This document shows, in pieces, positions 32,641 through 52,221 of a stretch of DNA of 64,000 bases. Both the position numbers and the translations under genes were made by a program. Source of the stretch: Candidatus Parcubacteria bacterium (GTDB lineage Bacteria > Patescibacteriota > Patescibacteriia > Patescibacteriales > UBA12075); assembly GCA_963814275.1 (NCBI GenBank), contig CAWFCE010000002.1, positions 702,919-766,918 on the forward strand, given 5' to 3'. How positions within the stretch are numbered: the stretch's first letter is position 1; each line of letters begins with the position of its first letter. Below the pieces are notes generated by a model. That model did no database searches. It was given only the letters and a program-made list of their open reading frames with translations, and was not told the DNA's origin.

Positions 32641-32651
32641 AATAAAAAGTT

Positions 32652-33038: not shown

Positions 33039-33149
33039 TTTAAGACAGGGAAAAAGCGCCCGGCTTTCTTTGTTTGTTATACACGAAACCTTAAATATTG
33101 ACCGTTTGTCCGCGGAATTAACGCGGACCCTACGCGGATTTTACGCTGA

Positions 33150-33760: not shown

Positions 33761-33812
33761 TTTAAAATTATCCGGTATTCGCGATGGAAAAATTTTCTGA
33801 TATAATTGTTGT

Positions 33813-34145
33813 ATGAAGGACTATGTCTATTTCACATATATCGCCACGAATTTTCCCCGTTGTACCGTTTTATACACCGGAATAACCAGCGACCCTTACG
33901 GCCGTGAATGGGAACACCAGAACAAGGAATTTCCCGACAGCTTTTCCGCGCGTTACAATATTAACCGCATTGTTTATTTTGAATATTATGACGATGTGAA
34001 TGTCGCGATCAAAAGAGAGAAGGCGATTAAAGGAAGTTCGAGAAAGAAAAAAATGAAATTGATCGAGTCGATCAATCCGGATTGGTCTGATTTGGTTGAA
34101 AAAATGCGAAATGAGGAAAACGTGGTTGGCAATACGCGCGATTGA
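33813..34145 (+). CDS. GIY-YIG nuclease superfamily protein (small COG2827/UPF0213-type)
   Basis: YVYFTYIATN...LYTGITSDPYGREWEHQN...YFEYYDDVNVAIKREKAIKGSSRKKK pattern. Confidence 0.7.
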   Translation: MKDYVYFTYIATNFPRCTVLYTGITSDPYGREWEHQNKEFPDSFSARYNINRIVYFEYYDDVNVAIKREKAIKGSSRKKKMKLIESINPDWSDLVEKMRNEENVVGNTRD

Positions 34146-34346
34146 AGTGAATCATGATAATCCGGATAAATAATCACGGCCCCACCATTCCGCCATTCCA
34201 GTCTTGAATTGTAGAGAATAAGTGTGTTATAATAATCCTATAAATCATATTAATGGAATTACGCTATATTGCGTAATTTTTTTTAATTACAGAGTTTCAG
34301 CCAGCTGGCTGATCCGCCTTTGGAGGAAATTCTGTAATTCCATATT

Positions 34347-34529
34347 ATGGCCAGATTAAGCCTTGAAAACAGGAATATTAGGAAATTGTGCAAGGTCGGG
34401 GGATGGAAGACCTACTCCGTAACCCTGCCGATCGAAGCGATCAGGGAGCTGGGCTGGCAGAAGAAGCAGAAAGTGGTCGTGGAGACCGATTTGAAGAATA
34501 AGCGTTTAACGATTAAGGACTGGAAATAG
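34347..34529 (+). CDS. Small AbrB/SpoVT-like (looped-hinge helix) DNA-binding / antitoxin-like protein, 60 aa
   Basis: KVGGWKTYSVTLPIEAIRELGW resembles the swapped-hairpin motif. Confidence 0.35.
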   Translation: MARLSLENRNIRKLCKVGGWKTYSVTLPIEAIRELGWQKKQKVVVETDLKNKRLTIKDWK

Positions 34530-34533
34530 ACCT

Positions 34534-35393
34534 ATGCCGGCAGCCTATCCTCGGTTATTCCATATTGGCACGCAGAAGGCCGGCTCGACCTATCTGTACA
34601 ATATTCTTGCGCAGCATCCTGATTTGTCGTTGCCAAAGATCAAAGAACCGGCGTATTTTACCACGAATTACGAACGCGGACTGGAATGGTATTCGGGGTT
34701 GTTCGAAGGAGAGGGGATCCGCCTTGATACCACCCCCAAATATTTCCAGTTGGGGGAGAAAGCAGCGCCGCGGATCAAAGAGTATGCCGACAGACATCTG
34801 GCCGAACCGCCCCGCTTCCTCCTGATCCTGCGCAATCCGGTCGATTACCTCAATTCTCATTTCGAAATGCAGAAATACCACGGTTTTTCCGGAATAACCC
34901 CGGGGATTACCCGGAACCGATGGATAAGCTCATTGACCACCTTAGGCGCTACCCCAAGTACCTGGAGCGCGCCCGCTACGCCAAGATTTTGAGGAGCCAT
35001 TGGCTCAGCCGCTGGCCGCTCGAAAATTTTCTGATAGTTTATTTCGAGGATTTCATCGCTGATCCGAATGGAACTGCCAACCGGATCTGCCGTTTTTTCG
35101 GGGTCAGCGAGCATGAGTTCAACACCGCCAATCAAGTGAGCCGCAACAAAATGCTGAGGAATGACTGGCTCTTCCGTCTCCAGTCCTGGACAGTGAAAAG
35201 GGAAGGGATCAAAAATGTTTTGAAGAAAAGCCGCTTGTTCAATTATGCTTATAAGAATGTCCTGACCGGGAAATCAGGCAGTAAATTACCGCCGGGAGAC
35301 CGCCGGGAGATCGCCGCCATGCTCAAGCCCGATGTTGCCGAATTGGAGGTATTGCTAGGCAAGAAGATAGAGGTTTGGCCCGATTTCAAATAA
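34534..35393 (+). pseudogene. Sulfotransferase-family gene interrupted by a frameshift at a C4G4 run (~34905-34920)
   Basis: N-terminal PAPS 5'-phosphosulfate-binding motif GTQKAGSTYL in the 34534 frame. C-terminal sulfotransferase part (FLIVYFEDFIADPNGTANRICRFFGV) in the 34920 frame; junction at taaccccggggatt. Confidence 0.6.
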
Positions 35394-35424
35394 TTTCACC
35401 CTGGCGACTTTTTTTGTCATTTCG

Positions 35425-35895
35425 AACCACCACCTTTCTGTCATTGCGAATCCCGAAGCGTTTTTTACATTGTCATTGCGAGCGACAGAAAAAACTATTA
35501 TCTACGGATATATATGGATGAAGATTTAAGCAGTTGCTTCCGCATACGAGAAGTCGCAAACCAGTCCCGAGGCGTTTTTTACATTGTCATTGCGAGCGAC
35601 AGAAATAAATTATGGTTTATGAACCGATTTTGATAAAGTACTATGAAGTTGCATCCGCATACGAGAAGTCGCGAAGCAATCCCGAGGCGCGAGGAACTAG
35701 CCTTTTTTAACCGCTTCGTAATCAACGCTTAGTGATTTGTGGCACGGGATTGCTTCGCGACTCCATGATCGAGAATAAAACCAATCAGATCGTTATCGCA
35801 ATTACCAGAAGCTAATATGTATTTGCGGTCGCTCGCAATGACAGATTAATTAGGATTGCTTCGCCCCGCAGCGCGCTGGGCTCGCAACGACAGGA
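35425..35895. repeat. GC-rich nested-palindrome element, family C copy 3; direct repeat of copy 2
   Basis: Same module order and orientation as 33290-33700. Confidence 0.7.
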
Positions 35896-35914
35896 TATTA
35901 TTAACAATAAATAT

Positions 35915-36451
35915 ATGATCAACAAAAAATCCATCATTATTTTCACCGCAATAATTATCTTGGCGGCTGCTTCCCGTTTAATAAACCATCCCTACAATTT
36001 CACCCCGCTCGGAGCGATGGCGCTTTTTGCCGGCGCGTATGGACTGAAAAAGAGCTGGGTAATCCTGCCGCTGGCCGCCCTCCTGATCGGCGACTATTTT
36101 ATCGGATTTTATGCCTGGCCGGTGATGGCCGCAGTTTACGGTTCCTTCGCCCTGGCCTTCGTCATTGGCTGGCAGATGAGGAAGCGGGCAAAATGGCAGA
36201 ACATAGCCGCCGCCTCGCTGGTTTCTTCCCTAGCTTTTTTCCTCATCACCAATTTCGCCGTCTGGGCATTCGCCAGCTGGTACCCGCACACCCTCGCCGG
36301 CCTGTTGAATTGTTTTACTCTCGCCATCCCGTTTTTCCGCAATACTCTCCTGGGTGACCTGGTTTACAGCGGAGCGCTGTTCGGAGGATATGAGCTGGTT
36401 AGTTATTTCGTTGTAAATAGTAAAACAAAATTTGCATCACGCAACATGTAA
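35915..36451 (+). CDS. Small polytopic membrane protein, possibly ECF-transporter S-component-like
   Basis: 178 aa, 5-6 TM helices; precedes a DUF4430 lipoprotein gene. Confidence 0.45.
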   Translation: MINKKSIIIFTAIIILAAASRLINHPYNFTPLGAMALFAGAYGLKKSWVILPLAALLIGDYFIGFYAWPVMAAVYGSFALAFVIGWQMRKRAKWQNIAAASLVSSLAFFLITNFAVWAFASWYPHTLAGLLNCFTLAIPFFRNTLLGDLVYSGALFGGYELVSYFVVNSKTKFASRNM

Positions 36452-36505
36452 CATATAGCACGCAACAAATTATACTTAATACTAAATACTTAATACTATT
36501 AAGCC
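36432..36505. repeat. Family D repeat copy 3 (overlaps stop of the 35915 gene)
   Basis: gcatcacgcaacatgtaacatatagcacgcaacaaattatacttaatactaaatacttaatactatt. Confidence 0.5.
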
Positions 36506-36511
36506 CCTCGT

Positions 36512-36985
36512 ATGATAATCAAAAAGATAAAATTTTCGATTTTAATTATCCCGCTGCTATTGGTGACGACCGCTTGTATCAACCAAGCAACAGCACCTGG
36601 TCCGGATGAGGAAGCTACCAATACGGAATCAATGGCGCAGGAAGAGCCGGCGGTCAATACGGTTCAGGCGTATCTGCGTTTTGTCGTGGCGGGGCAGGAC
36701 GACCCGATCTATGGCGAGACGCTGGAAGCGGAAACCGGTGTTGATCTGCTGACGCTGATGCAGACGCTTAATAATGAGGACAGGATCCAGATGGTGGTGA
36801 ATGGCGAAGGGGATATGGCGTTTGTCGAAAGCCTGGACGGCATGGCGGGCGACGCGGCTACGAACAAGTATTGGATGCTCTATGTGAACGATGACCTGGC
36901 CACAGTCGGCGCCGGCGCCTATATCATCCAGGACGGCGATTTCATAGAGTGGCGATACCAAGATACGACGGATATAAGTTTATAA
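36512..36985 (+). CDS. DUF4430-domain lipoprotein (transcobalamin-like C-terminal-domain fold)
   Basis: Lipobox-like LLVTTAC, C-terminal YWMLYVNDDLATVGAGAYIIQDGDFIEWRY matches the DUF4430 signature. Confidence 0.65.
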   Translation: MIIKKIKFSILIIPLLLVTTACINQATAPGPDEEATNTESMAQEEPAVNTVQAYLRFVVAGQDDPIYGETLEAETGVDLLTLMQTLNNEDRIQMVVNGEGDMAFVESLDGMAGDAATNKYWMLYVNDDLATVGAGAYIIQDGDFIEWRYQDTTDISL

Positions 36986-37159
36986 CCAAGGATATTTTTT
37001 ATAGAGTTTTTGCGAAATAAGAATGTTTCACCGCAGATAAATCGCTGATGAGTACGCTGATTTTTCGCTGAATCGTCTATCAGCGTTTGATCAACGTAGC
37101 AAGCCGCGATATATCAGCGGTCAAGCCGTGAATAGTTAGCCACGAGCAGAATAATAAGT

Positions 37160-38236
37160 ATGAGACTTTTAATAATCACCCAGAAGATAGATATTAATGA
37201 TTCAATTCTCGGCTTTTTCCATTCCTGGGTTCAGGAGTTCGCCAAGCACACCGAAAAATTAACGGTAATCTGCCTCCAAAAAGGCGAATATGATCTGCCG
37301 GATAATGTATCCGTATACAGCCTCGGTAAAGAGAATTCCAATTTCCAATTTCCAATTTCCAATTCCTCGATTTTCAAAAGAATAAACTACATTTACCGCT
37401 TCTACGGTTTGATCTGGCAAAAACGTAAAGAATACGACACAATCTTCGTCCACATGAACCCCGAATACGCGGTCCTGGCCGGCTGGCTCTGGAAATTGTG
37501 GCACAAAAAAGTCGCCCTTTGGTATACTCATAAGCAGGTTGATCTTAAACTACGTTTAGCGGAAAAGATTGTAGACGTTATATTTACTGCCAGCAAAGAA
37601 AGTTTTCGTCTTCCCAGTAATAAACTGAAGATTACAGGACACGGTATCGATCTTGAAAAGTTTCAACCGTCAAAGAGTAAAAACTCAAATTCAGGAGTTA
37701 AATTTAAAATTTTGTCGGTAGGCAGGATTTCGCCCAGTAAAGATTATGAGACATTGATAAAAGCCCTTAAAATTTTAAAAATGCAAGGTTTTTTATTTCG
37801 GACAAAGATCGTGGGAGGGCCGGTTTATGACAGTGATAAAGTATATTATGAACGATTAAAAAATTTAGTGAAGAATGAAAACCTGGAATCCGAAATTGAA
37901 TTTATCGGTCCTATACCAAATAATAAAATTGTTGATTATTATAATGATGCCGATATTTTCGTTCATATGAGCCAAACTGGCAGTTTAGACAAAGTAGTTC
38001 TTGAAGCGATGGCATGTGGGTTGATTATAATTTCAAATAACGATGCTGTTGTGAGAGATGTATTAATTGAATATAAGGAATATTTATCGTATCCAAAACA
38101 TGATTCAAATGCGTTGGTTGAACGTATTAAAAATTTAGTTGTTTTAGATAGAAGACAATTTTTAGATATAAAAAACGATTTGCATAGATTAGTATCTACG
38201 AATCATGATTTGAAAAGATTAATCAAAATATCATAA
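37160..38236 (+). CDS. Glycosyltransferase family 1/4 (intact)
   Basis: GRISPSKDYETLIKAL, EAMACGLIIISNN (EX7E-region). AT-rich gene. Confidence 0.8.
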   Translation: MRLLIITQKIDINDSILGFFHSWVQEFAKHTEKLTVICLQKGEYDLPDNVSVYSLGKENSNFQFPISNSSIFKRINYIYRFYGLIWQKRKEYDTIFVHMNPEYAVLAGWLWKLWHKKVALWYTHKQVDLKLRLAEKIVDVIFTASKESFRLPSNKLKITGHGIDLEKFQPSKSKNSNSGVKFKILSVGRISPSKDYETLIKALKILKMQGFLFRTKIVGGPVYDSDKVYYERLKNLVKNENLESEIEFIGPIPNNKIVDYYNDADIFVHMSQTGSLDKVVLEAMACGLIIISNNDAVVRDVLIEYKEYLSYPKHDSNALVERIKNLVVLDRRQFLDIKNDLHRLVSTNHDLKRLIKIS

Positions 38237-38256
38237 ACGGATTAAAATAAAAGTTT

Positions 38257-38633
38257 ATGCGCGTATGCTATTTTGGCTACTATAATCCTGAATACAGCCG
38301 CAACCGGGTATTGAGGCAAGGGCTTAGGGAAAACGGAGCAGAGATCGTTGATTGCCGAAGCCGGAGAAGGGGATAAGAAAATATTACGAGTTATATAATA
38401 AGCACAAGAAAATAAAAAAGGACGGCTATGATTTTCTGTTGGTCGGGTTTCCCGGCCATTTAGCCGCTATTCTGGCGCGTTTCCTGACCCGGAAAAAAAT
38501 AATCTTTGATTGTTTTACGTCCCTTTATGACTCTGCGGTTTATGACCGGAAGAAAGCGGGGAAAATAAGTTTGATAGCCGGTTATTATTGGCTCCTGGAT
38601 TACTTATCCTGCCGACTGGCCGATACGGTTTGA
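38257..38633 (+). pseudogene. Truncated/frameshifted glycosyltransferase N-terminal fragment (YFGxYNPEYSRNRVL family)
   Basis: MRVCYFGYYNPEYSRNRVLRQGLRENGAEIVDC (frame 1), then GYDFLLVGFPGHLAAILARFL...FDCFTSLYDSAVYDRK (frame 0). Paralogous to the fragments at 43921-44438. Confidence 0.55.
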
Positions 38634-38719
38634 CTGAATTACAAAACATTGTCAGGGAGTGTCATAGTCTGCCGGTATTGATCAGTAAAATGAATAAATA
38701 TATCAAAGAAGGAAACTAA

Positions 38720-39762
38720 GATGAAAATAGCTTTAATCGGCGGAGCCAGGCCGAATTTTATGAAAATAGCGCCATTGGCGCTGGCGCTTAAAAAAAATAA
38801 AATTAACTATTTTTTGGTCAATACCGGCCAGCATTTTAGAAGGTAATGGCTGATGATTTTTTCGAGGAATTCGGGTTGCGGCCGATTACCAGCTCAAGCC
38901 GAAGCGCTATACAGTGGTCAGCCAGTTAGCGAATAATGATCAGGTTGGAAAAGATATTCATAGCTGAATCGCCGGATTTGGTTTTGGTCGTAGGAGACGT
39001 GAATTCCACTTTGGCGGCAGCGCTTACGGCCAACAAATTGCGAATCAAGCTGGCTCATGTGGAAGCTGGACTGCGATCTTACAGTAGCAGCATGCCTGAA
39101 GAGTATAATAGAGTGTTAACGGATCATCTAGCCGATTTTTTGTTCGTGACCGAGGAAAACGGGATCGCCAATTTGAAAAAGAGGGAATAACCAAAAATGT
39201 ACATTTTGTAGGCAATATCATGATTGATAATTTAAAAAGATTTTTACCACAGATAAAAAGTACACAAGAAGAATTCGACTATTGTACTTTAATGGGCTGA
39301 GAATGTAGATAACCGGTCAGTTTTTAAGGAAATATTGTCTGCAATCAAAGAAGTTCCGGCGACCGCCGGATATATCTACCTCTGCATCCGCGAACCAAAA
39401 AGATGGCATTGCAATTCGGGTTGATGAAGGATATTAAGCGAATATTTACGATCGTTCCTCCGCTTAGTTACCACGAATCTTTGTATTACCAAAAAAACGC
39501 CCAAGTGGTACTGACCGATTCAGGCGGCATCCAGGAGGAGTCCAGCTTTTTAGGCACACCTTGTGTGACGCTCCGGACTGAAACAGAGCGTCCGATCACG
39601 CTTAAGTGCGGTACCAATGTCTTAGGTGGTGTAAAAAAGGAAGGTATATTAAAAGCATATCAAACAGCACTTAATAAAAAAGGCAAAGCGAAAATTTCAT
39701 ACTGGGACGGTAAAACTTCCCAAAGAATAATTAAAATTTTAAAAGAATATGGCGAGAACTAA
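38720..39762 (+). pseudogene. wecB: UDP-N-acetylglucosamine 2-epimerase (WecB-like) broken into at least 4 frame-shifted pieces
   Basis: MKIALIGGARPNFMKIAPLALAL...NTGQHF; SPDLVLVVGDVNSTLAAALTA...HVEAGLRSY...PEEYNRVLTDHLAD; HFVGNIMIDNL; VLTDSGGIQEESSFLGTPCVTLRTETERP. Confidence 0.65.
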
Positions 39763-40495
39763 ATACGTCGATGTTCGTTCATCACAGAGTTATTACACCC
39801 GTAACGCTTATATTAAAGAATATTTGGCAGACAAAAAAGTCAAACTATTGGATGTCGGCAACTTGGGCGATGGGAAATTGATTGTGGATCTACCAACCAT
39901 GGTCAAAATAACGGTGGTGAATATTACGGTCTGGACTGTAACGAAAATTTAGCCAACGATATGAAGCTGAAAAATCAACTGATAGGCCGGGTTACACGAT
40001 TTGAGTGGTTTGGTAAATGATGCTCAGTTTGACGTAAACGATGCCGGGCAGGTGATAGAACATACCTGGCAGCCGGGACTTATAATCAAAGAGTGCAGCC
40101 GAATTTTGAAAAAAGATGGCGTTTTGATCTTGGACACGCCTAACGTCTATGGCTTTCGTGCTTTGATAAGATATTTTATTCTAGGCAAAGATACGGTCGG
40201 TATGGATGATAATTTACTAGGTTACAACGAAGCCAAAGATAATTACAAACAATATCGCAGCGACAAACAGCACATCTTAAGTCAACCCCAACACAAAATT
40301 TTTTACAGTGCTGCCATGTTAAGACAGCTTCTAAATATGCACGGATTTGCAATTGAAAAGTTGATATACGTAAAGAAACCGAAAAATATCATTTACAAAC
40401 TTTTATTAAATATATTCCCACAAGGCGGACAAAAAATTGCCGTAATCGCTAGAAAAAAAAGTTTAGAGGATATATTTAGTATTAATTCAATATAA
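39749..40495 (+). pseudogene. Class I SAM-dependent methyltransferase, frameshifted
   Basis: KVKLLDVGNLGDGKL (motif I-like) in one frame; VIEHTWQP...KKDGVLILDTPN in the next. Confidence 0.45.
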
Positions 40496-40588
40496 CGATA
40501 TAACGATGGATTATTTTTTTAAATTAAATAACAAGAATGCCACGATAATAATTATAAAATTGGTCGATTAACATATAATCAAATATTC

Positions 40589-41893
40589 ATGGCGAATATA
40601 AGTGAAAAAAAAATTAAAATAAGAATCCCACAATTGCCTCTCGACAAGGCAAGCGAATTTTTTTCAGATGAAATATTAACTCAACCAGGAGTAAGAAAAA
40701 TCGTATTGTTTCCCGATTCTTTTACTAAAGAAAAATATTTAAAAATTAATTATAAAGCAACCATTCCCTCAAGTGTTGTTATCGCAAGCGCCCCTATTAT
40801 TTATATCCTCAATTCAGGTCGCGTGGGATTAATTGCGGGATGATGGCCGTAGCCTTGCCATTAACTATCGATCAGTTGCCAAAAAAATTTATAGAAAACT
40901 TGCATAAAAATATTTTGTATACTTTATATTATTATTTAAATTATCGATTAAGGATGCCATTCGCAGATAGCAGATATGATTTAAATAAAAGTGAGTTCAA
41001 AAAGGTTTTACAAAGTGGCGCAAAAGGTTTTGCTGAACTTAAAAATATTCCGACTAATTTAATAAATAATTTTGAGTTTGGAGGGAGCCCCCATATATTT
41101 CATCCGAAGAGATAATTAATTATATTAATCCGGACTGGTTTGCAAAGAGAAACATTCGTTTACGTAGGTCGTTCGGACGTTATTTTGGTGGAAATCATTT
41201 TTTCGAAATTCAAGTTGTTGAAGAGATAATTAAAAATGATTACTGGTCGAAGAGGTTGACCCCCAAACAATTAGTCGTAATGTTTCATACTGCCGGGAAT
41301 TGTTAGAAGATATTATTTTACCTAAATGGCGCGATAAATATATCCGTACAAATAAATTCACTCCCATTATAAACGATCTTGAAGCGTATAAAGGCTTTTT
41401 TGTGGGACAGAATGTGGCTATGAATTATGGCTACGCTTATAGATTGGCAAGTTTCTCCTTAATAAACCAAGCTTTTCAGTCAATGTTCGGTAATGATAAA
41501 AATTGTGAGGTATTAATTGATAAAGGCCATAATTTTACTTTGCAAGAATCAATTAATGATCATAAATACCTACTTTATCGCCATAACGCAGAAAGACTAT
41601 TGCCAAATGATTATGCGATTTTATCCGGTTACTATACTCATCCATCATATATAGTATCCGGCGGTAATAATTTGACAACATCTCTCAACACGATTGACCA
41701 CGGACTTGGTAGTCTGATTGAAGCTGATAAAAATAAAGACTTCAAAAAAGTAAATGTTAAATTACATCGTTTTAGAAAAGGCATTAAGTTTTTGGGAAAA
41801 CCGCAAACTAACGATTTTGAGCTAACTGAATCTTATTTTGTTAAACAGTACTTTAAATTAATGTCTGAAAAGAATTATTATACCCAGTTGTAA
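40589..41893 (+). pseudogene. rtcB: RtcB-like RNA ligase remnants in at least 4 fragments
   Basis: LTQPGVRKIVLFPDSF (cf. lPGvv..amPDvH), GRYFGGNHFFEIQ (RtcB GGNHFiE motif), LVVMFHTAGN (cf. HsGSRG), DHGLGS (cf. NHGAGR). The motifs fall in different frames. Confidence 0.4.
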
Positions 41894-41935
41894 AATTATT
41901 GCCAATTAATAATATGAAATTTATTTAATTCAATT

Positions 41936-42723
41936 ATGGAAACCATTTGCGAGTTAAGGGAAATATGCCAGTCGCAAAAGATTAATAAACCGAAATTTTT
42001 ACTAGCAATCGGCTATACCTGGCATCGAAGATTATCTATATATATCACTTATATATTATTGTCTATATTCCCTCGTATTACTCCAAATACGATTAGCTTT
42101 TCGATGATTATTGTCAGTATTATCGGCTGTACATCACTTTTACCCGGAATTCGTAATTTAAGTATAGCCGGCATGTTAATCGTTTATTTGGGGTTTTTAC
42201 TCGATAAATGCGATGGTGAAGTAGCGAGATACAAAAAAATTAACACCTTGCGTGGTGTTTATTTAGATGAACTTTATCTTTACTTATACCAAGCTGTTTA
42301 ATTTTTTGTTTTACTTATAATTTATTTGATTACAGTAGGGAGTTATTTATTTTGAATCTACTAGCGATTTTATTTAATGTTTTTAATCGTATTAATAGAA
42401 AAATTGCTTTAATTATTTATGCCAAGAAAAGGGTACCGTTCGAGAAAGGAGTTTTTGAGAAATATGCTGGCAATCGATTTGTAGACAAAATTTTAAATAG
42501 CTATATTTTTAAAATATTCAGTATTGTCGATAGATTCGACTTGATTGTATTTGTGATGACTTTTATTATATTTATCAAACCGCTTCATCATTATCCATTG
42601 CGACTCTGGTATATATATGTGTTTACATCGTTTTCTATTATTTATTTTTTCCGCTGGGTTATGTTATATTATTTTGGCCAAGTCTATAAAATGGTAAACG
42701 AAATGGCTAACAAAGGGTATTAG
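41936..42723 (+). pseudogene. CDP-alcohol phosphatidyltransferase-family membrane protein, interrupted
   Basis: LDKCDGEVARYKKINTLRGVYLDELYL matches DxxDGxxAR...G...D...D. The ORF stops at 42301 and resumes at 42352 in another frame. Confidence 0.5.
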
Positions 42724-42766
42724 GAATATATGTTAACAATTATCTTAACTTTGAATAAATATCTCT

Positions 42767-43850
42767 ATGAAAATTATATATATTGGCAACACAAGAATTC
42801 CAACTGAATTGGCACATGGTTATCAAATTAGTAAAATGTGCGAAATGTTTGGAAGAAACGGAGTTGATCTATCCCTGGTATTACCGGAGTTAGTTAACAA
42901 TATTGCTTTCGATTTGTTTAGTTATTATGCAATACAAAAAAGTTTTAAGGTTCAATATTTAAGAATTTTTCACAATATAAATATTACAAATAAAATAAAA
43001 AATTTTTCTTTTAATTTATTCTCCTTGTTTTATTTGTATAAGTTATTTTTTTTAAAAATAGATAAAAATATCTTGATTTATACTAGGGCACAAGAAATTG
43101 CTGGGTTATTTAAATTGAAGGGATATAAAGTGGTTTATGAATGCCATAATTGGTTGGAGAAAAAAAATTTTTTATTAAAAAATATAAATTTAATTATTAC
43201 TACAAATTTATATATAAGAAAGAGATTGTAAAAAATGTACATTATAACGAAAAAAAAATTATAACAATACCAAACGGTGTAGATTTAGATATATTTAATG
43301 TTCCCTTTACAAAAGAAGAAGTGATAGAGAAAATAGGAAGTAGGTTAATCGGAATGGAGTTAATGAATAAAAAGATATTGATGTATACCGGAACGTTTCG
43401 AACAAAAGGCTATGAAAAGGGGATCGGGGATATATTGGAGGCGTTAAGAAAAATGCAATCACCAAATATTGTATTTTTCGGAATTGGTGGTAGCGATTGC
43501 GAGATAAAGGAATATTCAAATCTAGCAAAAAAATTAGGAGTATCAGATAAGGTTATTTTTATAGGAAGACAGGAAAGAAAAATATTAGCGCTATACCAAC
43601 ATTTAGCCAGCGTAATGCTTATGCCATTCCCCAAAATAGCACATTATGAATTTTACATGACCCCATTAAAATGTTTGAATATATGGCAAGCAAGAAACCG
43701 ATAATAGCAAGCGACCTGCCTAGTATAAAATGTATTTTAAACAAGGAAAATGCAATATTTTGCAAACCCGGAGACCCCAATGATTTGGCCGAAAAGATTT
43801 CTTATCTATTAAACAATGAAGATATCGGCGGAAAGTTTTCATGAAAATCT
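42767..43850 (+). pseudogene. Glycosyltransferase family 4, three frame-shifted pieces
   Basis: N-terminal MKIIYIGNTRIPTELAHGYQ; middle ITIPNGVDLDIF...KKILMYTGTFRTKGYEKGIGDILEA; C-terminal KKPIIASDLPSIKCILNKENAIFCKPGDPNDLAEKISYLL after 43687. Confidence 0.55.
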
Positions 43851-43920
43851 TTCTAGGATGTGCAACAGTATTCTTGGCATAAAGGGCAAAAAATTTTGAA
43901 ATTTATGATCAATATTTAAG

Positions 43921-45060
43921 TAATTAAAGCCATGTATAATAATTTTGATATTGATAGGATTATGGGTATAATTAATAGACTAATAACTTTTTGCTTTTTA
44001 GGAAATTATAATTCGGAATATTCTAGAAACAGAGTCCTTATTCGTGGCCTGGAAGAAAATGGCGTAACTGTTTTTCAATGTAACGATGAAAATAAAGGAA
44101 TTAAATTATGATATAATTTAATGAGAAAGCATCGACGAATTAAGGATGACTACGATATTTTATTTATTCCATATTCTGGCGGATCAAGATTTGTAGTGTT
44201 TTTATCATATTTTTTAACAAATAAAATGATATTATGGGATGCATTTTTCTCGCTTTATGATTCGTGGGTATTTGACAGAAAGTACGTTGATAGATATTCT
44301 CTAAAATCATTTGTATATTGGTTTTATGACTGGCTGGGCTGTGCTATAGCAGATAAAGTGTTACTTGACACTAATGAACATATTGAATATTTTATCAAAA
44401 CTTTTAAAATTAAAAGAGAAAGTTTATTAGAGTTTTAATTGGCTCAGATAATAATATTTTTCTTCCGAAATTTAATTAAACCTATAATAAATAATCTAAA
44501 TGTTTAATGTATTATTCTGGGGGAATTATATTCCTTTACAAGGAATAAAATATATTATTTTAGCAGCTAAGGAATTAGAAAAACATTCCGACATTTGTTT
44601 TACTTTAATTGGCAAAGGTCAAGATTATAATAATATTTATAATTTTAGTTAAAAAATTAGAATTAAATAATTTAATTTTTGTTAATTTTATTCCTTTAGA
44701 AAGCTGCCAAGTTATATCAAATAAAGTCTGATATTTGTCTTAGGTATTTTTGGAGATACTCCAAAAACAAAAAGAGTTATACCCAATAAAGTATATGAAG
44801 CTATTGCAATGGCAAAACCAACTATTTCTTCAGATACGCCAGCAATAAAAGAAATATTTACTGATCGCAAAAATATATTGTTGAGTAATATTGCCGACTC
44901 CCATGATTTGGCGAATAAAATATTAGAATTGAAAGATAACGAAGAGCTGAGGGTAGCGATAGCAAACGGTGGTTATAAATTATATAACGAATTAGCTGTG
45001 CCACAAATTATAGTGAAGCGCTTATTAAATGATTTAATAATTGATGAAATTTACCGGTGA
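43921..45060 (+). pseudogene. Glycosyltransferase (YFGxYNxEYSRNRVL family) in at least 4 fragments
   Basis: LGNYNSEYSRNRVLIRGLEENGVTVFQC; IPYSGGSRFVVFLSYFL...FFSLYDSWVFDRK; FWGNYIPLQGIKYIILAAKELEK; C-terminal KPTISSDTPAIKEIFTDRKNILLSNIADSHDLANKILEL. Confidence 0.55.
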
Positions 45061-45590
45061 ACAATTCATACCCGGCATAGCAAAAAAAAGACTTTTCTCG
45101 GATGAGCATGAAAAAAGATATGAATTCGCTACGAAATATGCTAAGGGAAAAAACGTCCTAGACATAGCGTGCGGGACAGGTTATGGTTGTAATTCTTTAC
45201 TCTGCAACCGCCTTCAAGGTTACCGGAGTTGATATATCCAAAGAAAGTATTCATTTTGCGAAGAACCATTGTGAGTCAAGAAATATAAATTTTATTGAAG
45301 CATCAGCAACAGATAATTTATTTGATAAAAATGAATTTGATCTGATTTGCACATTCGAAACAATTGAACATCTGACATCTTCGCAAAGAAATATGTTCTT
45401 AGAAAATTTAGTTAAATGGATTAAAAAGGATGGTGTAATATTGCTTTCAACTCCAAATAAATATGTTACCTCCCCGTTCACTGACAAGCCTTTGAATAAA
45501 TTTCATGTATTAGAATACACCGAAATATCCCTTTTGGACGAATTAAATAATTATTTTTATGTGAGGAAATTTTGGGCCAAAGAATTATAA
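45041..45590 (+). pseudogene. Class I SAM-dependent methyltransferase split by a frameshift
   Basis: KNVLDIACGTGYGCNSL (motif I) in the first frame; TGVDISKESIHFAKNH...FDLICTFETIEHL...KKDGVILLSTPN in the second. Confidence 0.55.
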
Positions 45591-45754
45591 ATAAATTTTA
45601 TTTGAATTATCTTGTAAGAAAATTTATATCAATAATTCAAAAAATTATTAAAACGAATTTCAGGATATATGAAGATCGTTCCGGACCTCTTGTTGAAGTG
45701 TATAATCATTTATTTTATGAGCCAAGGATTTTCGTATTAGTATAAGAAAAAAGC

Positions 45755-46352
45755 ATGAACAAATTTAAAACGTATATAATTAAATTGTTGAACATGGAAA
45801 ATAATTTGTCTAAATTTGGGGTACGTATACGAAGAAATTATAAAATAAAGAAATTTAACAACTCGGATTACAAGGTAATAGAAATTTGTGGTGGTAAAAA
45901 TCCATTAGAAAAAAATAATTTGAACATCGATGTTATGGACCATCCATTGGTTGATTTAGTCAGCAATGTTAAAAATCGGAATACCAATACAAGATAATGA
46001 TATAGACAAAATAATTTCTATTGCTACCCTGGAGCATTTTAGTATTATCGATTTAAAATTTTTACTTAAAGATTTCTATAGAATATTAAAAAAAGATGGG
46101 ATACTAGAAATAGGCGTTCCATCTTTGAAAAAAATTATTGATTATTATAGTAAAAACGGTTGCGATGATTATGTAATTAGATATTTACATGGGGGGCAGA
46201 AAGATGTATATGATATACATTTAAATATTTTGGATTTTAGCAGATTTAAAGCTGAATTAAATATAGCGGGATTTAGTTCTGTCTCTCAATGTGATTATGA
46301 TTTTCCCATGCACGATAAGAAATTTATGATGAAAATAATTGCCAAAAAATGA
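45755..46352 (+). pseudogene. Methyltransferase type-11-like, split by a frameshift
   Basis: KVIEICGGKNPLEKNNLNIDV then IATLEHFSIIDLKF...KKDGILEIGVPSL. Confidence 0.45.
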
Positions 46353-47595
46353 TCAGCTTGCCTTTTTGGATGCGAAAAACAAATATATAGACCCAAGTAG
46401 CTTATATATGACTTTTGAAATAACAAGACCGATAATACCGTAGTTAATAAAATATAGATAAAGCAATACAAGAACAAAGGGACCAAAAAAATTGAATTTA
46501 TATAATATATTAGTTTTTTTTTGTGATTCAAGCGCGGATATTAACAGAATATTGGCCGAAGCCAATAGGGATATTGAGTAAATTTGTGAATATAAAATTG
46601 ATTTAAGATATTGTGGAAATAGTATTTTAAATAACAATGGGCTTAATACAAAATATATAACAATAAGGGAAAAAATGAATATTAGTAATTTAAAATATTT
46701 ATTAAATATATTTTTTTTTATTTTTTCATAATTATATTTGGAGTATTTAGCAAATGAAAGTTGGTATATAGGGCCAATTAAGCTTTTTATTTGGTCTGGT
46801 ACGCCCATGGCAATGGAGTATATTGCAAGATCTGTGGCGGAAAAAAAATGGAAAATCATCAATTTGTCGATCTGACTTGTTAATGATGAAATTAAATTTA
46901 AAAATGTTAAATTCTTTCCATATTTTTCTAAACCAATTTCTTTTTTATTAATTCTTATCTTATTTAATATTATTATGGTGAATATAAGTCTTATAATTGT
47001 ATAAGATGCAAAATAAGACAAGATTATTATGAAGATATTTTTTGTAAAAAGACTAATGAATATTATAAATGATGCAATTATCTTGGCGATTATGTAGTTT
47101 CTTGCAGATAGTTTAAATTCTTTTCTGCCGTTGTAGTATGCCCATATATATTCAAAGAATCTAAAAAGGGAATAAATATAGCTGTAATTAAAAATCCTAT
47201 TGCAAGATTCGTGTTATTGCCATGCCAATAATACCCAGCAAGTATTAAACCAGATATTCCACCAAGCAATCCCCAGCGTATCTTAGTTTTTATAGCAGGC
47301 AATACCGAACCCTCGTAGCCTTTTGCAATCGCTCTAGTTAGCGCAGTGTTCATTCCCGACAACGTAGGAATAGTGAGAAGCTTGCTATAGATAAAACATA
47401 TTTATAAACGCCATAAATTTCTTTTGGTAATATATTAGCAAAAGCGATCGCCAATAGAAATGCAGAAAGACTGGATATTATTTGTCCCAGTGAAAGCCAA
47501 AAACCACCTTTAAATAAATAAACCATATCCGTTTTTGTCCAGCGTTCAGACCAGCGTAATAATTTGTATAATTTAATTTTGTATTTTTCGATCAT
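46353..47595 (-). pseudogene. wzx: Wzx-like polysaccharide flippase (MOP superfamily) in three fragments
   Basis: N-terminal fragment KGGFWLSLGQIISSLSAFLLAIAFANILPKEIYGVYKYVLSIAS; middle and C-terminal multi-TM fragments in different frames. Confidence 0.5.
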
Positions 47596-48113
47596 AATTT
47601 ATTACATAAAACACTAATTGATTATAACTTTTATTTTTATTTTTAGCAATAAAATAAACATGTAAACGGTAAGTTTGCTTATGTATAAAAACAATATTCA
47701 GGATATCGAAAATATAGTTAGCTGCATCTACCAGTCAATGATTCGATTCTTAGAAAAGACGATTTTTGATCCGTCGCCAGTTATATGCGAATTACCAATA
47801 GAAGCCATGGAGTATCCCTTTGGCCATTCCATTCGGTAGGAAAACGTACGAGATGCTTAAGAACGAAAGCGAATTAAAACAAATGAACAGCTATACAAGG
47901 AAAATCAATACAATCGCCCATATCATTATTTTACTAACCGGGCAGCATTACGAGGAAATTTATATTAAAAAGCATGTATTCTCCAGGTGTAAATTGGAAA
48001 ATGCATGAATGATCGTATATGTATTTAAAAGATTATAATATTTTAGAAAATTAGTTTACTAAATTATATATGGTCGATTTTTTCATGCCAAAAAAAACTA
48101 CCTAGTCATTTTC

Positions 48114-49157
48114 TTGCTTATTATATACGCCGCGTTCAACATAATTTTTAAATTTACTATTGCCAGAGACACATACTATGTTGGCGAGGGAACCACATAT
48201 GTCAATGCGGTTCATTGGCTAGAGGGTGGTGAGCCTGATAACCCTAAGAGATTGACTAGATTATTAAAACCTTTAGGGCCTGCTGGAATTATTTTAATTT
48301 CAGAAATAAGCGGACTGGATTTCTATGATTCATTGATGGTCGAGGTAATAGTATTTTATATAGCTTTGGCAATAGCGATTTATTTTTTTGTACAGCTATT
48401 TTTCGAAAATAAATATTTGGCATTATTGGGTGCGATATTTTACATCAGCACCTATCCCATGCTTTTTTATGACTTAAACCTATTGACCGAATCTGGTGCC
48501 AATTTTTTTTATGTATTGAGCGCAATTTTTGTATATAAATTTTATGTCGATCCGAAAAATCGATATTTTTATTATTCGGTATTAATTATAATTTTAGGCA
48601 TACTATGGAAAGAATATGAATTCCAGATCGGGTTATTGCTTGGATTGGCAATATTGCTTCACCCCGACTTAAAGCTAAAAAATAAATTATATAAAATATT
48701 GATTTATGGCGCATTAGTAGCAATTACCTGGGGCTCCTGGCAAGTATTTGTATATTTGAAGTGGCATTATACTTATTTAAGCTGGAGCCGCGGTCCGTCA
48801 GGAATTGATTTGTTTTTCCAGCTGAAAAGTATATTTGCTTTAGTTTTGGCCGGCTGGCTTTTGGTCCCCTTCGGCGCATTGGGTTGGAAAAAATTTAGCA
48901 AAAGACAACGAATAATGATTATCTTGCTAATAATAATATGTACGCCCATGGTTCTGTTCTGGTTTGGTATTAATTCGCGTTTATATTATCCATTGGTTTT
49001 ACCTTTGATAATTTTGATAATGAATGGCTTTGAATATCTCTGTCAGCGGTATAGTCCATATTTAGGTCACACACTATATGTTGTCGCTATTTTAAGTAAT
49101 TATATATGGTTATTAATTGGCAATAATTTTCGTCAATATTTAGGTATCCATACTTAA
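48114..49157 (+). CDS. Polytopic membrane protein (intact), possibly O-antigen polymerase / GT-C-like
   Basis: 347 aa, 10+ hydrophobic helices, located in the polysaccharide island. Confidence 0.45.
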   Translation: MLIIYAAFNIIFKFTIARDTYYVGEGTTYVNAVHWLEGGEPDNPKRLTRLLKPLGPAGIILISEISGLDFYDSLMVEVIVFYIALAIAIYFFVQLFFENKYLALLGAIFYISTYPMLFYDLNLLTESGANFFYVLSAIFVYKFYVDPKNRYFYYSVLIIILGILWKEYEFQIGLLLGLAILLHPDLKLKNKLYKILIYGALVAITWGSWQVFVYLKWHYTYLSWSRGPSGIDLFFQLKSIFALVLAGWLLVPFGALGWKKFSKRQRIMIILLIIICTPMVLFWFGINSRLYYPLVLPLIILIMNGFEYLCQRYSPYLGHTLYVVAILSNYIWLLIGNNFRQYLGIHT

Positions 49158-49162
49158 TAACT

Positions 49163-50603
49163 ATGAAAAATATAATCATTTTAGGCGGCGGTCCGGCCGG
49201 CATGGCTTGTGCGTTGGAACTTAGCAATCACGGAGTTAATTCGACCGTAGTTGAAGCCGATAATAATGTCGGTGGATCGGCGAAAACTTTATTTTTAAAG
49301 AGGGGAATGACACTTTCCGTTCGGATATCGGACCCCATCGTTTTTATTCCAAAAATAAATATCTTTATAAAATGATCGAAGATATTCTGGGTGATGATTG
49401 GATATTGGTTGATCGCCTTACCAGGCAGTATATTGAGGGCAAGTATTATGATTATCCGATAAAAATACTTAACGCTTTTAAAAATATCGGATTGAAAAGA
49501 GCTATATTAATGGCTATTTCTTATATGGCCGCCTTGATGAAATACCGTTTGTTAAAGAAATTACGAATTTCGAAGAATATATCGTGGCGAATTTTGGCCG
49601 CCGGCTGGGCGAATTCAGCATGCTCAATTATTCACAAAAGATTTGGGGAACAGATTGCAAGAAGCTGCATATAGACTGGGCTGGACAAAGGATCAAGGGA
49701 TTGAATTTGTTTAGCGCCTTAATAAAAGCAATTTCCATCAATAAAAAACAAACCCCTAAAACATTGATTGATCAGTTCTATTATCCGTTAAGAGGTACCG
49801 GAACCATATATGAGACGATTGCTGACAAAATAAATAAAAGAGGAAGCGAAGTATATTTAAACAGCCGGCCGACCAGGATTTACCACAATGGAAAACGCAT
49901 TAATAACGTCGATATAAATATTAACAATAAAGTGGTAAATCGGGCATTGGATAATTTGGTGACTTCAATACCTATTACCACCTTTATTGATTTACTGGAT
50001 CCGGCACCGGACAAAGAGGTGCAAAATGCGATAAATAAATTGAAGTGGCGGTCACAGGTTTATTTATTCATAACTCTTGATAAAAAAAGTATCAGCAAGG
50101 ACAACTGGATTTATTTCCCGAATTTGGAAATACCTTTCGGCAGGATTTCGGAAATGAAAAATTTCAGCAAAGATTGTGTCCCGAAGATAAAACGATTGTT
50201 GTGGTTGAATATTTTGTTTGGAAAGATGATTTTATTTGGCATATGTCGAAAGAAGAATTAACCGAATTAACATTGAAGCCATACCGAACGGGCGGGATTA
50301 TTCGGGCGGAAAGACATCAGGAACGTTTATCACAGAAAAAATCATTTCGTATATCCAGTGTATGATCTGGATTATAATAATAATCTGCATACAATAAAAA
50401 AGTATCTGGACAAATTTGAAAATTTAGAATATATTGGCCGACCGGGACGATTTTTCTATACAAATCAGGACCATAGCTTGGAAATGGGAATAATGGCTGC
50501 CCGCAGTATAATGGAAAATAAGCATTATGATTTAGAAAAAATCGGCACAGATCAAGAATATTTTGAAAATGGTTATATTAAAAACGAAGAAAAAGATGGG
50601 TAA
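49163..50603 (+). pseudogene. FAD-dependent oxidoreductase (amine-oxidase/desaturase-like) in at least 5 fragments
   Basis: N-terminal dinucleotide motif IIILGGGPAGMACALEL; C-terminal YIGRPGRFFYTNQDHSLEMGIMAARS in another frame. Confidence 0.5.
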
Positions 50604-52221
50604 TACGCGACAAATATTTGTTAAGAAAGATTTAATTCAGGATATTGAAAATATTGTTAATGGTATTTTCTCGCCGTTAAAAGGTTTTTTTCGTAAAGAC
50701 GATTTTTGGTCAGTTGCCAATGATATGCGTCTCTCAGACGATACCCCTTGGAGTATCCCTTTTGCCATTCCGATCGAGTCGGGAAACCTATGATGAGCTT
50801 AAAGATGAGAATGAAGTCAAGTTGATGAATGGTGATTCATGGACGGTACTCCAAAACATCGAAGTCTATCCGCACGACAAAGAAGCGCATGCGCGGCTGG
50901 TATATGGTACCCTTGACCAGTCGCATCCGGCAGTTGCGGAGATTATGGGATCAGGAGACTATTTGCTGGGCGGGGATATCGCCGAATATCATATTTCAGA
51001 GGATATCAAGCACAAGGAATTCTATTATTCTCCTGCGGAAACGAAGAAGATGTTTAGCGGAGAAGGGATGGAAGACCGTGGCTGCCTTTCAGACGCGGAA
51101 TGTGCCGCATCGGGGGCATGAGTTTTTGCATCATGAGGCTTTGAAAATTACCGATGGGCTACTCATTCAGTCCGGTGATCGGGGAGAAGAAGATGGCGGA
51201 TTTTAAGGACGAGTATATTTTGGCCGTTTATAAAACTTTGATCGAGCAGGGGGTGTATGGCGAGCGGGCGGTATTGGCGGCATTGCCTCTCAAGATGCGC
51301 TATGCCGGTCCGCGGGAGGCTTTGCACCACGCGCTTATCCGGCGCAACTTCGGCTGTACCCATTTTATCGTCGGCCGCGACCATGCCGGCGTTGGCAATT
51401 TCTACGCGCCCACGGCGGCTCAGGAAATATTTAAGGAATTCAGCAAGGAAGAGTTGGGGATCGAGATTATACCCATGGACGAGGTGGTTTATGACGGGCG
51501 GCGCAAGGTGCACTGCTTTATTGACGAATGCGCTGAAACTGATAAAATAAAATTTAGCGGCACTAAATTACGACGGTATATTGAAAACAAAGAAGTGCCG
51601 CCGGACTATCTCATACGCCCCGAGGTGTATGATATTTTAGTTAACACCAAAAATTCATTGGTTGATGAGATGTATAAAAACAGCAACAATAAAAAGGGCT
51701 TTGTCCTTTGGTTTACCGGGCTTTCCGCCGCCGGCAAGACCACGATTGCGGATAAGGTTTATGAGGAATTGATGGACAACGGTACCCGGCTGGAGCGCCT
51801 GGACGGTGACGTGGTGCGGGAGCGGCTGACCAAGGGGCTCGGGTTCGGCCGCGACGGGCGGATCGAGAACATCAACCGCATCGGCTTCGTGGCCAATCTC
51901 TTGTCCCGGAACGGCGTCGGCGTAATGGCCTCCTTCATCACCCCTTACCGGGAAATGCGCGACCGCCTGCGCGAAGGCGTCCACAATTACATCGAGGTAT
52001 TCGTCGACACGCCGCTCGCGGTCTGCGAAGCGCGCGACCCGAAAGGTCTCTACAAGAAGGCGCGCACCGGCGAAATCCCTCAGTTCACCGGAGTGAGCGA
52101 CCCGTTCGACGCGCCGGCCAATCCCCACATCCGCCTGCAGACCGATTGTCAGAGTCTGGATGAATGCGCGAAAATGGTAGTGGATTATTTGCGGGATAAT
52201 GGGTATTTGGATACTGAGTAA
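50563..52221 (+). pseudogene. Bifunctional sulfate adenylyltransferase / APS kinase (PAPS synthase) interrupted by three successive +1 frameshifts; the 3' 1.07 kb is intact
   Basis: Frame 1: GIFSPLKGFF...MRLSDDTPWSIP (ATP-sulfurylase N-terminal domain). Frame 2: [18 protein letters not shown]. Frame 3: [17 protein letters not shown]. Frame 1 again: GRDHAGVGNFY plus APS-kinase P-loop FTGLSAAGKTTIADKV. Confidence 0.7.

Follow-up and report, generated by a model that had tools for sequence, protein, structure and literature searches.

Mass gene fragmentation in a low-GC surface-glycan island of a Candidatus Parcubacteria bacterium is probably due to single-base consensus errors

When nearly every gene of a polysaccharide cluster is broken, is a pathway being lost or has the assembly gone wrong? 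This question arises for a stretch of 64,000 nt from a Candidatus Parcubacteria bacterium (hereafter the window; all coordinates count from its first letter). A preliminary description had noted a sharp drop in GC at ~37.0-50.8 kb, and 1-kb bins bear this out, with a GC of 0.25-0.41 at 37-51 kb and of ~0.5-0.6 in most flanking bins. The surface-polysaccharide gene content described at the same time was recovered with Pfam and homologs: GT1/GT4 glycosyltransferases, WecB (Epimerase_2), three SAM methyltransferases, an RtcB-like protein, a CDP-alcohol phosphatidyltransferase (CDP-OH_P_transf), a minus-strand Wzx-type flippase (Polysacc_synt), a PMT_2/GT-C-like membrane protein and a GLF/amine-oxidase-type FAD oxidoreductase (Table 1). 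The cluster is broken into ~45 stop-free pieces within 37-51 kb. Elsewhere in the window there are uninterrupted ORFs of 2175, 1017, 888, 845 and 803 aa, and the flanks, which include a 6.5-kb ORF, are clean. Given these long ORFs, the fragmentation is well beyond chance.

The ORF list and frameshift-aware alignments agree with the earlier view that nearly all genes are fragmented, with four frameshifts in the RtcB-like gene, one in the CDP-alcohol phosphatidyltransferase gene, two to three in wzx, four to five in the FAD oxidoreductase gene, seven in wecB and three in sat. The splits had been ascribed to frameshifts or stops; frameshifts account for nearly all breaks, and stops for few. No in-frame stops were found in the RtcB-like, CDP-alcohol phosphatidyltransferase, Wzx, FAD and sat genes in alignments to distant homologs, which run end to end with junctions that cost zero residues. 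Two genes regarded as intact (37160-38236 and 48114-49157) both have end lesions, and the supposed rtcB-like remnants turned out to be a full-length gene, conserved after restoration of the frame. As previously noticed, the damage extends to the sulfotransferase gene (one lesion) and the PAPS-synthase gene (three lesions, in the sat part).

An independent public assembly (ENA ERZ25039495) contains a contig of 17,966 bp with a Flye-style name, contig_58975, which matches window positions 33148-51094 with 97.7% identity, 302 mismatches and 86 gap openings. It diverges from the window by ~2% across its length, reaching 7-9% at 43.2-45 kb and with ~99.8% identity over 35-43 kb, and it represents a related strain or sample, not the same reads re-assembled. 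The extent of this contig coincides with the lesion zone. The preliminary description had proposed comparison with a related locus; in contig_58975 the genes are whole and the breaks are private to the window, none of whose 33 lesions recurs there. This contig has private lesions of its own at 43780, 45712, 45827, 45954 and 49282, and one at 50602 that abolishes a stop. A hybrid of both assemblies, in which the allele of one or the other was chosen at every indel, yielded full-length ORFs for nearly every gene. Nine hybrid ORFs were restored to length (Table 1), and there are therefore no frameshifts common to both assemblies in these genes.

Table 1. Genes and relics of the island and its borders, with their lesions in the window and their reading frames in contig_58975 and in the hybrid of both assemblies
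Feature	Coordinates	Strand	Identification	Lesions	ORF in contig_58975	Hybrid codons
Sulfotransferase	34534..35393	+	Sulfotransfer_1 (contig_58975 ORF)	Two pieces; one T missing from T6 run at 34887	286 aa	286/286
GT1 glycosyltransferase	37160..38255	+	Pfam Glycos_transf_1, E=1.5e-28; 42% identity to GT1 of L081/L082	Intact-looking (358 aa); 1-nt deletion 38223, 12 nt ahead of stop, alters last residues	363 aa	
Truncated glycosyltransferase	38256..38633	+	Start of ~355-aa family, ends at wecB	1-nt deletion 38362		
wecB (UDP-GlcNAc 2-epimerase)	38715..39762	+	Pfam Epimerase_2 on two fragments; frameshift-aware alignment	Seven deletion events: 38839, 38881, 38930 (2 nt), 39175, 39291, 39293, 39355	349 aa	351/349
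SAM methyltransferase	39749..40495	+	Pfam Methyltransf_11/23	Deletion 39904, insertion 39987	248 aa	250/251
RtcB-like protein	40589..41928	+	PF01139, E=1e-10 on one fragment	1-nt deletions 40795, 41093, 41296, 41867	447 aa	447/446
CDP-alcohol phosphatidyltransferase	41936..42723	+	Pfam PF01066; 53% identity to L081 homolog with one -1 frameshift	1-nt deletion 42278	262 aa	262/262
GT4/GT1 glycosyltransferase	42767..43844	+	Homolog alignments	Deletions 43218, 43667		359
Glycosyltransferase, P0172 family	43932..45060	+	Most divergent, lowest-GC stretch	Several private frameshifts in both assemblies		
SAM methyltransferase	45041..45745	+		45200, 45561, 45742 (140 codons in window); contig-private 45712	202 codons	237/236
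SAM methyltransferase	45755..46352	+		45971; contig-private 45827, 45954		199/200
Wzx-type flippase	46356..47598	-	Polysacc_synt; 45% identity to L084 flippase, two -1 frameshifts	Deletions 46380, 47140, 47380		416/416
sat 5' relic	47666..48005	+	AT-enriched partial copy, ~100 codons			
Polytopic membrane protein	48063..49157	+	Weak PMT_2 (GT-C) match, E=6e-4, below Pfam cut-off	1-nt deletion 48076 clips N-terminus	362-367 codons	
FAD-dependent oxidoreductase (GLF / amine-oxidase type)	49163..50603	+	60-64% identity to P0053-P0055; four frameshifts, zero stops	Five: 49291, 49553 (4 nt), 50174, 50279 and one more		482/481
Bifunctional ATP sulfurylase / APS kinase (PAPS synthase)	50563..52221	+	Aligned with L001 and with archaeal homologs	1-nt insertions at about 50776, 51056, 51171 (0/3 in homopolymer; first two absent from contig_58975); free of lesions from 51157 onward		

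Judging from these comparisons, the mass fragmentation of the island very probably consists of single-base consensus errors of the assembly and would not be biological. As a near-identical independent contig carries whole genes, the breaks are almost certainly sequencing or assembly errors. The spectrum of the 33 window-defective events points the same way: the second of two explanations offered earlier, indel errors of the assembly, is favoured by the privacy of the lesions, the excess of indels over substitutions and the near absence of nonsense codons. There were 25 1-nt deletions, five 1-nt insertions, one 2-nt deletion and two 4-nt deletions (28/33 deletions). In the near-identical bins (35-43 kb and 49-50 kb, 9 kb), 19 indels were found versus 15 mismatches, with a P value of 4e-6 if indels make up 20% of real mutations and of 4e-11 if they make up 10%; in mutation-accumulation work, indels amount to about a tenth of substitutions. 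The interval 34410-39400 has 12 gaps versus two mismatches, every one of these gaps being a deletion in the window. A stop would arise from about 5.5% of the substitutions that are possible in these ORFs. With five substitutions per indel, ~10 nonsense codons should have been present, versus at most three seen (P about 0.01).

The cause initially put forward for such errors, AT-rich homopolymers, finds no support. At the 30 single-base lesions, the run length was 1 in 15, 2 in six, 3 in two and 4-6 in seven cases, which is near background (15/30 outside any run, for a random expectation of 46% of bases), and no tract of more than 6 bases was found at lesion sites among the window lesions. Moreover, ~190 of the 197 runs of at least 5 bases are concordant between the window and contig_58975. 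The errors are strongly clustered, with none in 35-38.2 kb and 10 in the following 1.1 kb: the low-GC stretch at 37.1-38.2 kb is error-free, and the 10 deletions fall at 38.3-39.4 kb, where GC is 0.39-0.46. Such tight localisation has to be put down to something ad hoc, for instance coverage or polishing that failed locally. The source assembly was most probably built from long metagenomic reads and would have left ~40 single-base consensus errors, mostly lost bases, at 34.0-51.2 kb; the effective coverage of this strain-variable island may have been lower there, or alleles of several strains may have been mixed. We infer both the sequencing platform and the cause, low coverage or strain mixture. 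Indel errors that fragment genes in long-read assemblies have been described (Kastor, PMC12007338; Polypolish, PMC8812927), and the present case resembles them in that single-base indels break conserved ORFs, a close reference restores the genes and the errors vary between assemblies of one lineage. However, residual errors are usually described as affecting homopolymer length and as genome-wide, whereas here half lie outside runs and they are limited to a 17-kb strain-variable island with clean flanks.

The damage falls on one coherent pathway (glycan genes, sulfotransferase and PAPS synthase), as would be expected from a true pathway loss, and this speaks against an artefact. The first of the earlier explanations was massive pseudogenisation, which in its recent form would involve ~40 real frameshifts since the split from the strain of contig_58975, following the loss of selection for a sulfated glycan. 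Besides the coherence of its targets (glycan genes, sulfotransferase and sat), such decay would be in keeping with the true relics of the locus (38256-38633 and 47666-48005) and with a stop at 44497 present in both assemblies. It is contradicted by the whole genes of contig_58975, with which 12 genes share no frameshift despite ~99.8% identity over 35-43 kb, and only a small amount of true decay is left. The ratio of indels to substitutions and the shortage of nonsense codons given above also count against it, as do the size of the events (nearly all exactly 1 nt), the full preservation of gene lengths, the absence of larger deletions, the position of half of the lesions outside runs, unlike slippage mutations, and the private lesions of the same kind in contig_58975. 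We therefore regard real pseudogenisation as improbable. The pseudogene-rich genomes of host-restricted bacteria, such as Mycobacterium leprae and Salmonella Typhi, illustrate true decay, in which nonsense codons occur, indels vary widely in size, gene segments go missing and related strains have lesions in common. The island is like them in having many adjacent interrupted genes, but unlike them its lesions are 1-nt, private and nearly stop-free, and gene lengths are kept.

The divergent segments (dN/dS 0.06-0.44) point to purifying selection. Between the assemblies, the overall dN/dS was 0.27, with 0.06 for Wzx and 0.14-0.15 for both G8a and the 5' part of sat; the near-identical genes differ at too few sites for a verdict, and these differences are mostly non-synonymous, which errors would give too.

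A real, strain-private burst of mostly -1 frameshifts confined to the 17-kb glycan island, arising for example from error-prone repair synthesis, seems very improbable; it would mean that a whole sulfated-glycan pathway had been inactivated within ~0.2% divergence. Still harder to sustain is a chimeric join, by which a low-GC block from another AT-rich organism would have been mis-assembled into the chromosome with the lesions as a by-product. The large GC contrast between island and flanks, the GC of 0.29-0.39 in the contigs that carry the nearest homologs of the island genes, and the named matches of the FAD gene, which are CPR/DPANN MAGs, would suit such a join. However, contig_58975 has the same-order junction between host-GC genes (sulfotransferase, GC 0.53; DUF6580; DUF4430; sat) and the low-GC block, GC declines gradually through the first glycosyltransferase gene and wecB, and a host-type sat relic lies inside the block. 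Low-GC glycan clusters are common within higher-GC genomes. Phase variation or slippage rescue, in which frameshifts in mutable homopolymer tracts would switch glycan genes or be read through, has a very low probability: in other bacteria, genes for surface glycans are textbook contingency loci and a few lesions do lie in runs (T6 at 34887, A6 at 39175, A5 at 41867 and C4 at 47140), but 15 of the 30 single-base lesions are at non-repeated bases and six in dinucleotide runs, the longest tract is of 6 bases, ~190/197 runs of at least 5 bases are identical in both assemblies, and up to seven lesions per gene are more than any switching system needs.

The consensus errors leave a small genuine residue. 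The only inactivating lesions common to both assemblies are the truncated glycosyltransferase, the sat 5' relic and the stop at 44497, with none in the other 12 genes. The first two, and perhaps the third, are genuine remnants of an earlier rearrangement. The truncated glycosyltransferase is short in both assemblies, and its ORF in contig_58975 matches residues 1-125 of three homologs (P0172, P0173 and P0179) at 44-54% identity and then ends. The sat 5' relic aligns at the DNA level to 50630-50830, contains a TGG>TGA stop and frameshifts, and is broken in the window, in contig_58975 and in every hybrid. After comparison of both assemblies, three stops are left over in glycosyltransferase genes at 43.8-44.1 kb: a TGA at 44109, present in the window only, in the gene at 43932-45060, and two further stops (43842 and 43854) past the C-terminus of the GT4 gene. 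The gene at 43932-45060 also has the TAA at 44497 common to both assemblies, followed by an ATG, and is perhaps a natural split glycosyltransferase or a pseudogene.

The region is a real low-GC cluster for a Wzx-dependent cell-surface glycan, in a bacterial chromosome of ~50-60% GC; the glycan is probably sulfated and the island is probably exchanged by recombination. It contains the Wzx, GT1/GT4 and WecB genes of a Wzx/Wzy-type cluster, with an initiating phosphotransferase nearby (Bac_transf at 60701-62062), and the membrane protein at 48063-49157 is the sole Wzy candidate. Low-GC O-antigen/capsule islands, which are Wzx/Wzy-dependent and are swapped through recombination in the conserved genes on either side, are similar in having a GC content far under that of the genome, in their content (glycosyltransferases, WecB, methyltransferases, a Wzx flippase and a polytopic membrane protein), in their mosaic strain divergence, here 0.2% versus 7-9%, and in the presence of a flanking-gene relic (sat) at an old junction. 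Unlike these islands, the cluster contains an RtcB-like protein and a CDP-alcohol phosphatidyltransferase, is flanked by the sulfotransferase and PAPS synthase genes, and revealed neither a clear Wzy nor a clear chain-length regulator.

The RtcB-like protein is 51% identical to a homolog (P0011) over 98% of its length, in an alignment with four -1 frameshifts and zero stops, and all of its homologs carry PF01139. It retains the NH motif and nucleophilic histidine of the RtcB family, with GGNHF, HT.G and DHGLG conserved relative to Pyrococcus horikoshii RtcB (E=3e-8), and its sequence reads FPDSF where the PDxH motif is expected, which suggests that the first histidine has been replaced. As the fixed neighbours of this gene are glycan genes, its substrate may be other than RNA. 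The RtcB-like, CDP-alcohol phosphatidyltransferase and GT1 genes form a conserved, unusual module, which may be worth following.

Taken at face value, the window would have ~14 genes annotated as pseudogenes, or ~45 spurious small ORFs, and the island would be scored as massively decaying. In long-read metagenome assemblies, the local quality of strain-variable low-GC islands can be far worse than that of their flanks, and reading the breaks as consensus errors averts a false story of pathway loss. The repaired gene set would be an intact cluster with an unusual conserved module of RtcB-like, CDP-alcohol phosphatidyltransferase and GT1 proteins.

The window comes from a bacterial chromosome and carries genes for ValRS, a class A PBP, a 2170-aa alpha-2-macroglobulin and DUF3048, and tRNA and Rfam scans of it returned no match. 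The GC content at 37-51 kb was 0.25-0.41, versus ~0.5-0.6 in most flanking kilobases. Outside 34-51 kb, uninterrupted ORFs of 2175, 1017, 888, 845 and 803 aa were found, and the split-gene candidates at 54.8-56.6, 59.2, 30.3, 10.4 and 26.4 kb showed no sign of being gene fragments in Pfam searches; the plus strand of 34-51 kb consists of a series of short stop-free segments overlapping across different frames. The genes recognised in the island are listed in the table; the island lies between the genes for a sulfotransferase and for a bifunctional Sat/CysC (PAPS synthase). The GC bins, the ORF layout and the Pfam and homolog searches therefore bear out the preliminary description of an AT-rich polysaccharide island with fragmented genes. 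Underneath the breaks, the locus is a Wzx-dependent glycan cluster of an ordinary low-GC kind, with some unusual accessories: the RtcB-like/CDP-alcohol phosphatidyltransferase (CDP-OH) pair, the sulfotransferase and the PAPS synthase.

Features of the island and its surroundings, and sites of the RtcB-like/CDP-OH/GT1 module
Feature	Position	Strand	Basis
GT1/GT4 glycosyltransferases	island		Pfam and homolog searches
WecB	island		Pfam and homolog searches
Three SAM methyltransferases	island		Pfam and homolog searches
RtcB-like protein	island		Pfam and homolog searches
CDP-alcohol phosphatidyltransferase	island		Pfam and homolog searches
Wzx-type flippase	island	minus	Pfam and homolog searches
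PMT_2-like membrane protein	island		Pfam and homolog searches
GLF/amine-oxidase-type FAD oxidoreductase	island		Pfam and homolog searches
Truncated glycosyltransferase ORF	38256-38633
Two-domain glycosyltransferase	43932-45060
Copy of the sat 5' part	47666-48005
GIY-YIG nuclease and MazE/AbrB-like genes	33813-34529
Intergenic hairpin blocks	29418-29764; 33251-33694; 35451-35896
33-nt tandem array	30230-30435
AT-rich repeats beside peroxiredoxin gene	31683-31826; 32502-32658
23S rRNA intervening sequence protein family member	60227-60631		PF05635
Bac_transf initiating sugar transferase	60701-62062	minus
Module, window	39749-43844
Module, contig locus L081	6542-10500
Module, contig locus L084	1870-5826
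Module, contig locus L086	4811-8084
Module, contig locus L087	7074-10296
Module, contig locus L088	5970-9193

A search with the FAD gene identified a 98% identical homolog (P0052) on an independent public contig (contig_58975, ENA ERZ25039495), the whole of which (17,966 bp) aligned with 33148-51094 of the window (97.7% identity; 302 mismatches, 86 gap openings). Single ORFs were present in this contig for the sulfotransferase (286 aa), GT1 (363), wecB (349), a SAM methyltransferase (248), the RtcB-like protein (447) and CDP-OH (262); elsewhere it had a few private lesions of its own, with frameshifts at 43780, 45712, 45827, 45954 and 49282 and a stop loss at 50602 that fuses the FAD gene to sat (the Sat portion of the Sat/CysC gene). 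When the alleles of both assemblies were enumerated at every indel, hybrids encoding full-length versions of all three methyltransferases, the RtcB-like protein, CDP-OH, Wzx, the FAD oxidoreductase, WecB, the sulfotransferase and the sat 5' part were obtained. Thus, comparison with the orthologous locus of a relative, a check proposed in the preliminary description, restored the reading frames, and no frameshift was common to both assemblies in these genes.

Alignment with distant homologs, for which we wrote a protein-to-DNA aligner permitting frameshifts, yielded four -1 shifts and no stop in the RtcB-like gene (covering residues 1-448 of a homolog with 51% identity), one -1 shift in CDP-OH, two -1 shifts in Wzx, three -1 and one +1 shifts in the FAD gene and three +1 shifts in Sat, the last four likewise lacking in-frame stops. 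At all junctions, the homolog residues skipped equalled the DNA distance, so the events are 1-nt changes without loss of gene segments. A concatenated 2327-aa query matched only long multidomain proteins, which were used for the wecB alignment. On related contigs (GC ~0.30-0.39), the SAM methyltransferase, RtcB-like, CDP-OH and GT1 genes are intact and in the same order. A scan of genome contigs with the Sat/CysC ORF recovered distant relatives only, the best being a Saccharibacteria MAG at 60%, and none with an orthologous island; scans of metagenome contigs with the membrane protein and the intact RtcB-like protein gave no match. Look-ups of the exact products of the first GT, the 803-aa hydrolase and the SOD gene gave no match either.

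We assigned 33 reading-frame breaks (lesions) to the window assembly rather than to contig_58975, 25 of them 1-nt deletions and five 1-nt insertions. Window lesions lie at 34887, 38223-39355, 39904-42278, 43218, 43667, 45200-45971, 46380-47380, 48076, 49291-50279, 50776, 51056 and 51171. Over the near-identical 9 kb, there were 19 indels versus 15 mismatches, 17 of the 19 being bases absent from the window, and 34410-39400 had 12 gaps versus two mismatches; for the near-identical 9 kb, the indel excess has P = 4e-6 even on the assumption that indels make up 20% of real mutations. Stop-creating changes account for 5.5% of the possible substitutions in the intact island ORFs, and real decay with ~40 indels should therefore leave several nonsense codons; at most three candidates (44109, 43842 and 43854) were found, all within the most divergent stretch. 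The 1-nt lesion sites had run lengths of 1 (15 events), 2 (six), 3 (two) and 4-6 (seven), close to the background, in which runs of these lengths contain 46%, 28%, 13% and 13% of bases, and only ~7 of 197 runs of at least five bases differed between the assemblies.

The lesions are private, dominated by indels, unit-sized and placed almost at random, and lesions of the same kind are private to the other assembly; this is the signature of consensus error rather than of evolution, and, judged from these sequence comparisons, the fragmentation is very probably an assembly or consensus artefact. The preliminary description had also attributed such errors to AT-rich homopolymers. The artefact is favoured by the whole genes of contig_58975 and the hybrid ORFs, but the run-length statistics speak against homopolymer errors as the cause. 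GC as sole determinant is also rejected, since the lesion-free 37.1-38.2 kb (GC 0.35-0.38) has a lower GC content than the worst stretch, 38.3-39.4 kb (0.39-0.46, ten deletions). Homopolymers and GC are thus not the main cause of the lesions. Mass pseudogenisation, the other explanation offered initially, is not supported by private 1-nt, indel-dominated lesions with few nonsense codons. The locus fails the tests applied for true pseudogene clusters, and likewise those for contingency loci.

Two indirect hints, a Flye-style contig name and an index entry placing two flanking proteins also on a >1 Mb contig, point to long-read assemblies. Strain-variable islands tend to assemble as separate short contigs; the other data set yielded the related island on an 18-kb contig of its own, and the lesion zone (34.0-51.2 kb) matches the ends of this contig (33148 and 51094). 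Under the artefact reading, effective coverage of the island in the source assembly may have been lower, or alleles of several strains may have been mixed there, and the consensus would have dropped bases across it. Gene-fragmenting errors of long-read assemblies are well described (PMC12007338, PMC8812927), and we group the fragmentation with them; however, unlike the usual long-read errors, the lesions show only a weak association with homopolymers and are tightly confined to one stretch.

Some damage is present in both assemblies. A 125-codon ORF, a paralog of the two-domain glycosyltransferase gene, corresponds to residues 1-125, or the N-terminal third, of glycosyltransferases ~355 aa long; wecB interrupts it. 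The sat 5' part has an AT-enriched copy of 340 bp (~100 codons, ~70% DNA identity to 50630-50830), which is broken by a TGG>TGA stop and frameshifts. These two are genuine relics. The two-domain gene itself has a TAA at 44497, directly followed by ATG, in its interdomain linker (44485-44502), and is either a natural split of two Rossmann halves (a two-ORF enzyme) or a real pseudogene.

Divergence between the window and contig_58975 is mosaic, with ~99.8% identity at 35-43 kb and 49-50 kb and 5-9% divergence at 43.2-45 kb and in the sat 5' part (50.6-51.1 kb, dS 0.23), and differences in the divergent segments are chiefly synonymous (dN/dS 0.06-0.44, overall 0.27). This mosaic (~0.2% versus 7-9%) indicates strain-level recombination inside the island. 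Both the relic copy of sat and the strong divergence of the sat 5' part suggest that recombination within sat, at the flank of the island, has replaced the island, the relic probably being a scar of an earlier replacement; O-antigen and capsule loci are likewise replaced through recombination in flanking genes.

Several other features were observed around the island. Three related intergenic blocks (~350-450 bp, 79-92% mutual identity, no Rfam match) bracket the SOD/peroxiredoxin and GIY-YIG/MazE/sulfotransferase genes, and are built of hairpin-forming units with the 18-mer TGTCATTGCGAGCGACAG, which occurs eight times (0 expected) and is confined to them. The tandem array (period AAAGTTATAAAGTTTTTAAAGTTTGTAAAGTTG, ~6 copies, GC ~0.18) lies immediately upstream of a 126-aa secreted-looking ORF, and AT-rich direct and inverted repeats (~100 nt, 77-84% identity) lie on both sides of the peroxiredoxin gene. 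The 135-aa intervening sequence protein (E=4e-31) adjoins the Bac_transf gene. The small GIY-YIG nuclease and MazE-like genes upstream of the cluster also occur upstream of GT1 genes in a distant AT-rich locus (L082, 210-3167; MazE-like 57% identical), and synteny therefore reaches beyond the low-GC block.

The RtcB-like (~445 aa, PF01139), CDP-OH (~262 aa) and GT1 (~372 aa) genes keep a constant order, in many cases behind a SAM methyltransferase gene, and this module is also found in the glycan clusters of five separate AT-rich contigs besides the window. The RtcB-like protein retains the GGNHF, HT.G and DHGLG motifs. A search of a literature library for a link between RtcB, CDP-alcohol phosphatidyltransferase and glycosyltransferase found no paper, and the module may represent an undescribed step in the synthesis of a surface glycan or phosphodiester polymer.
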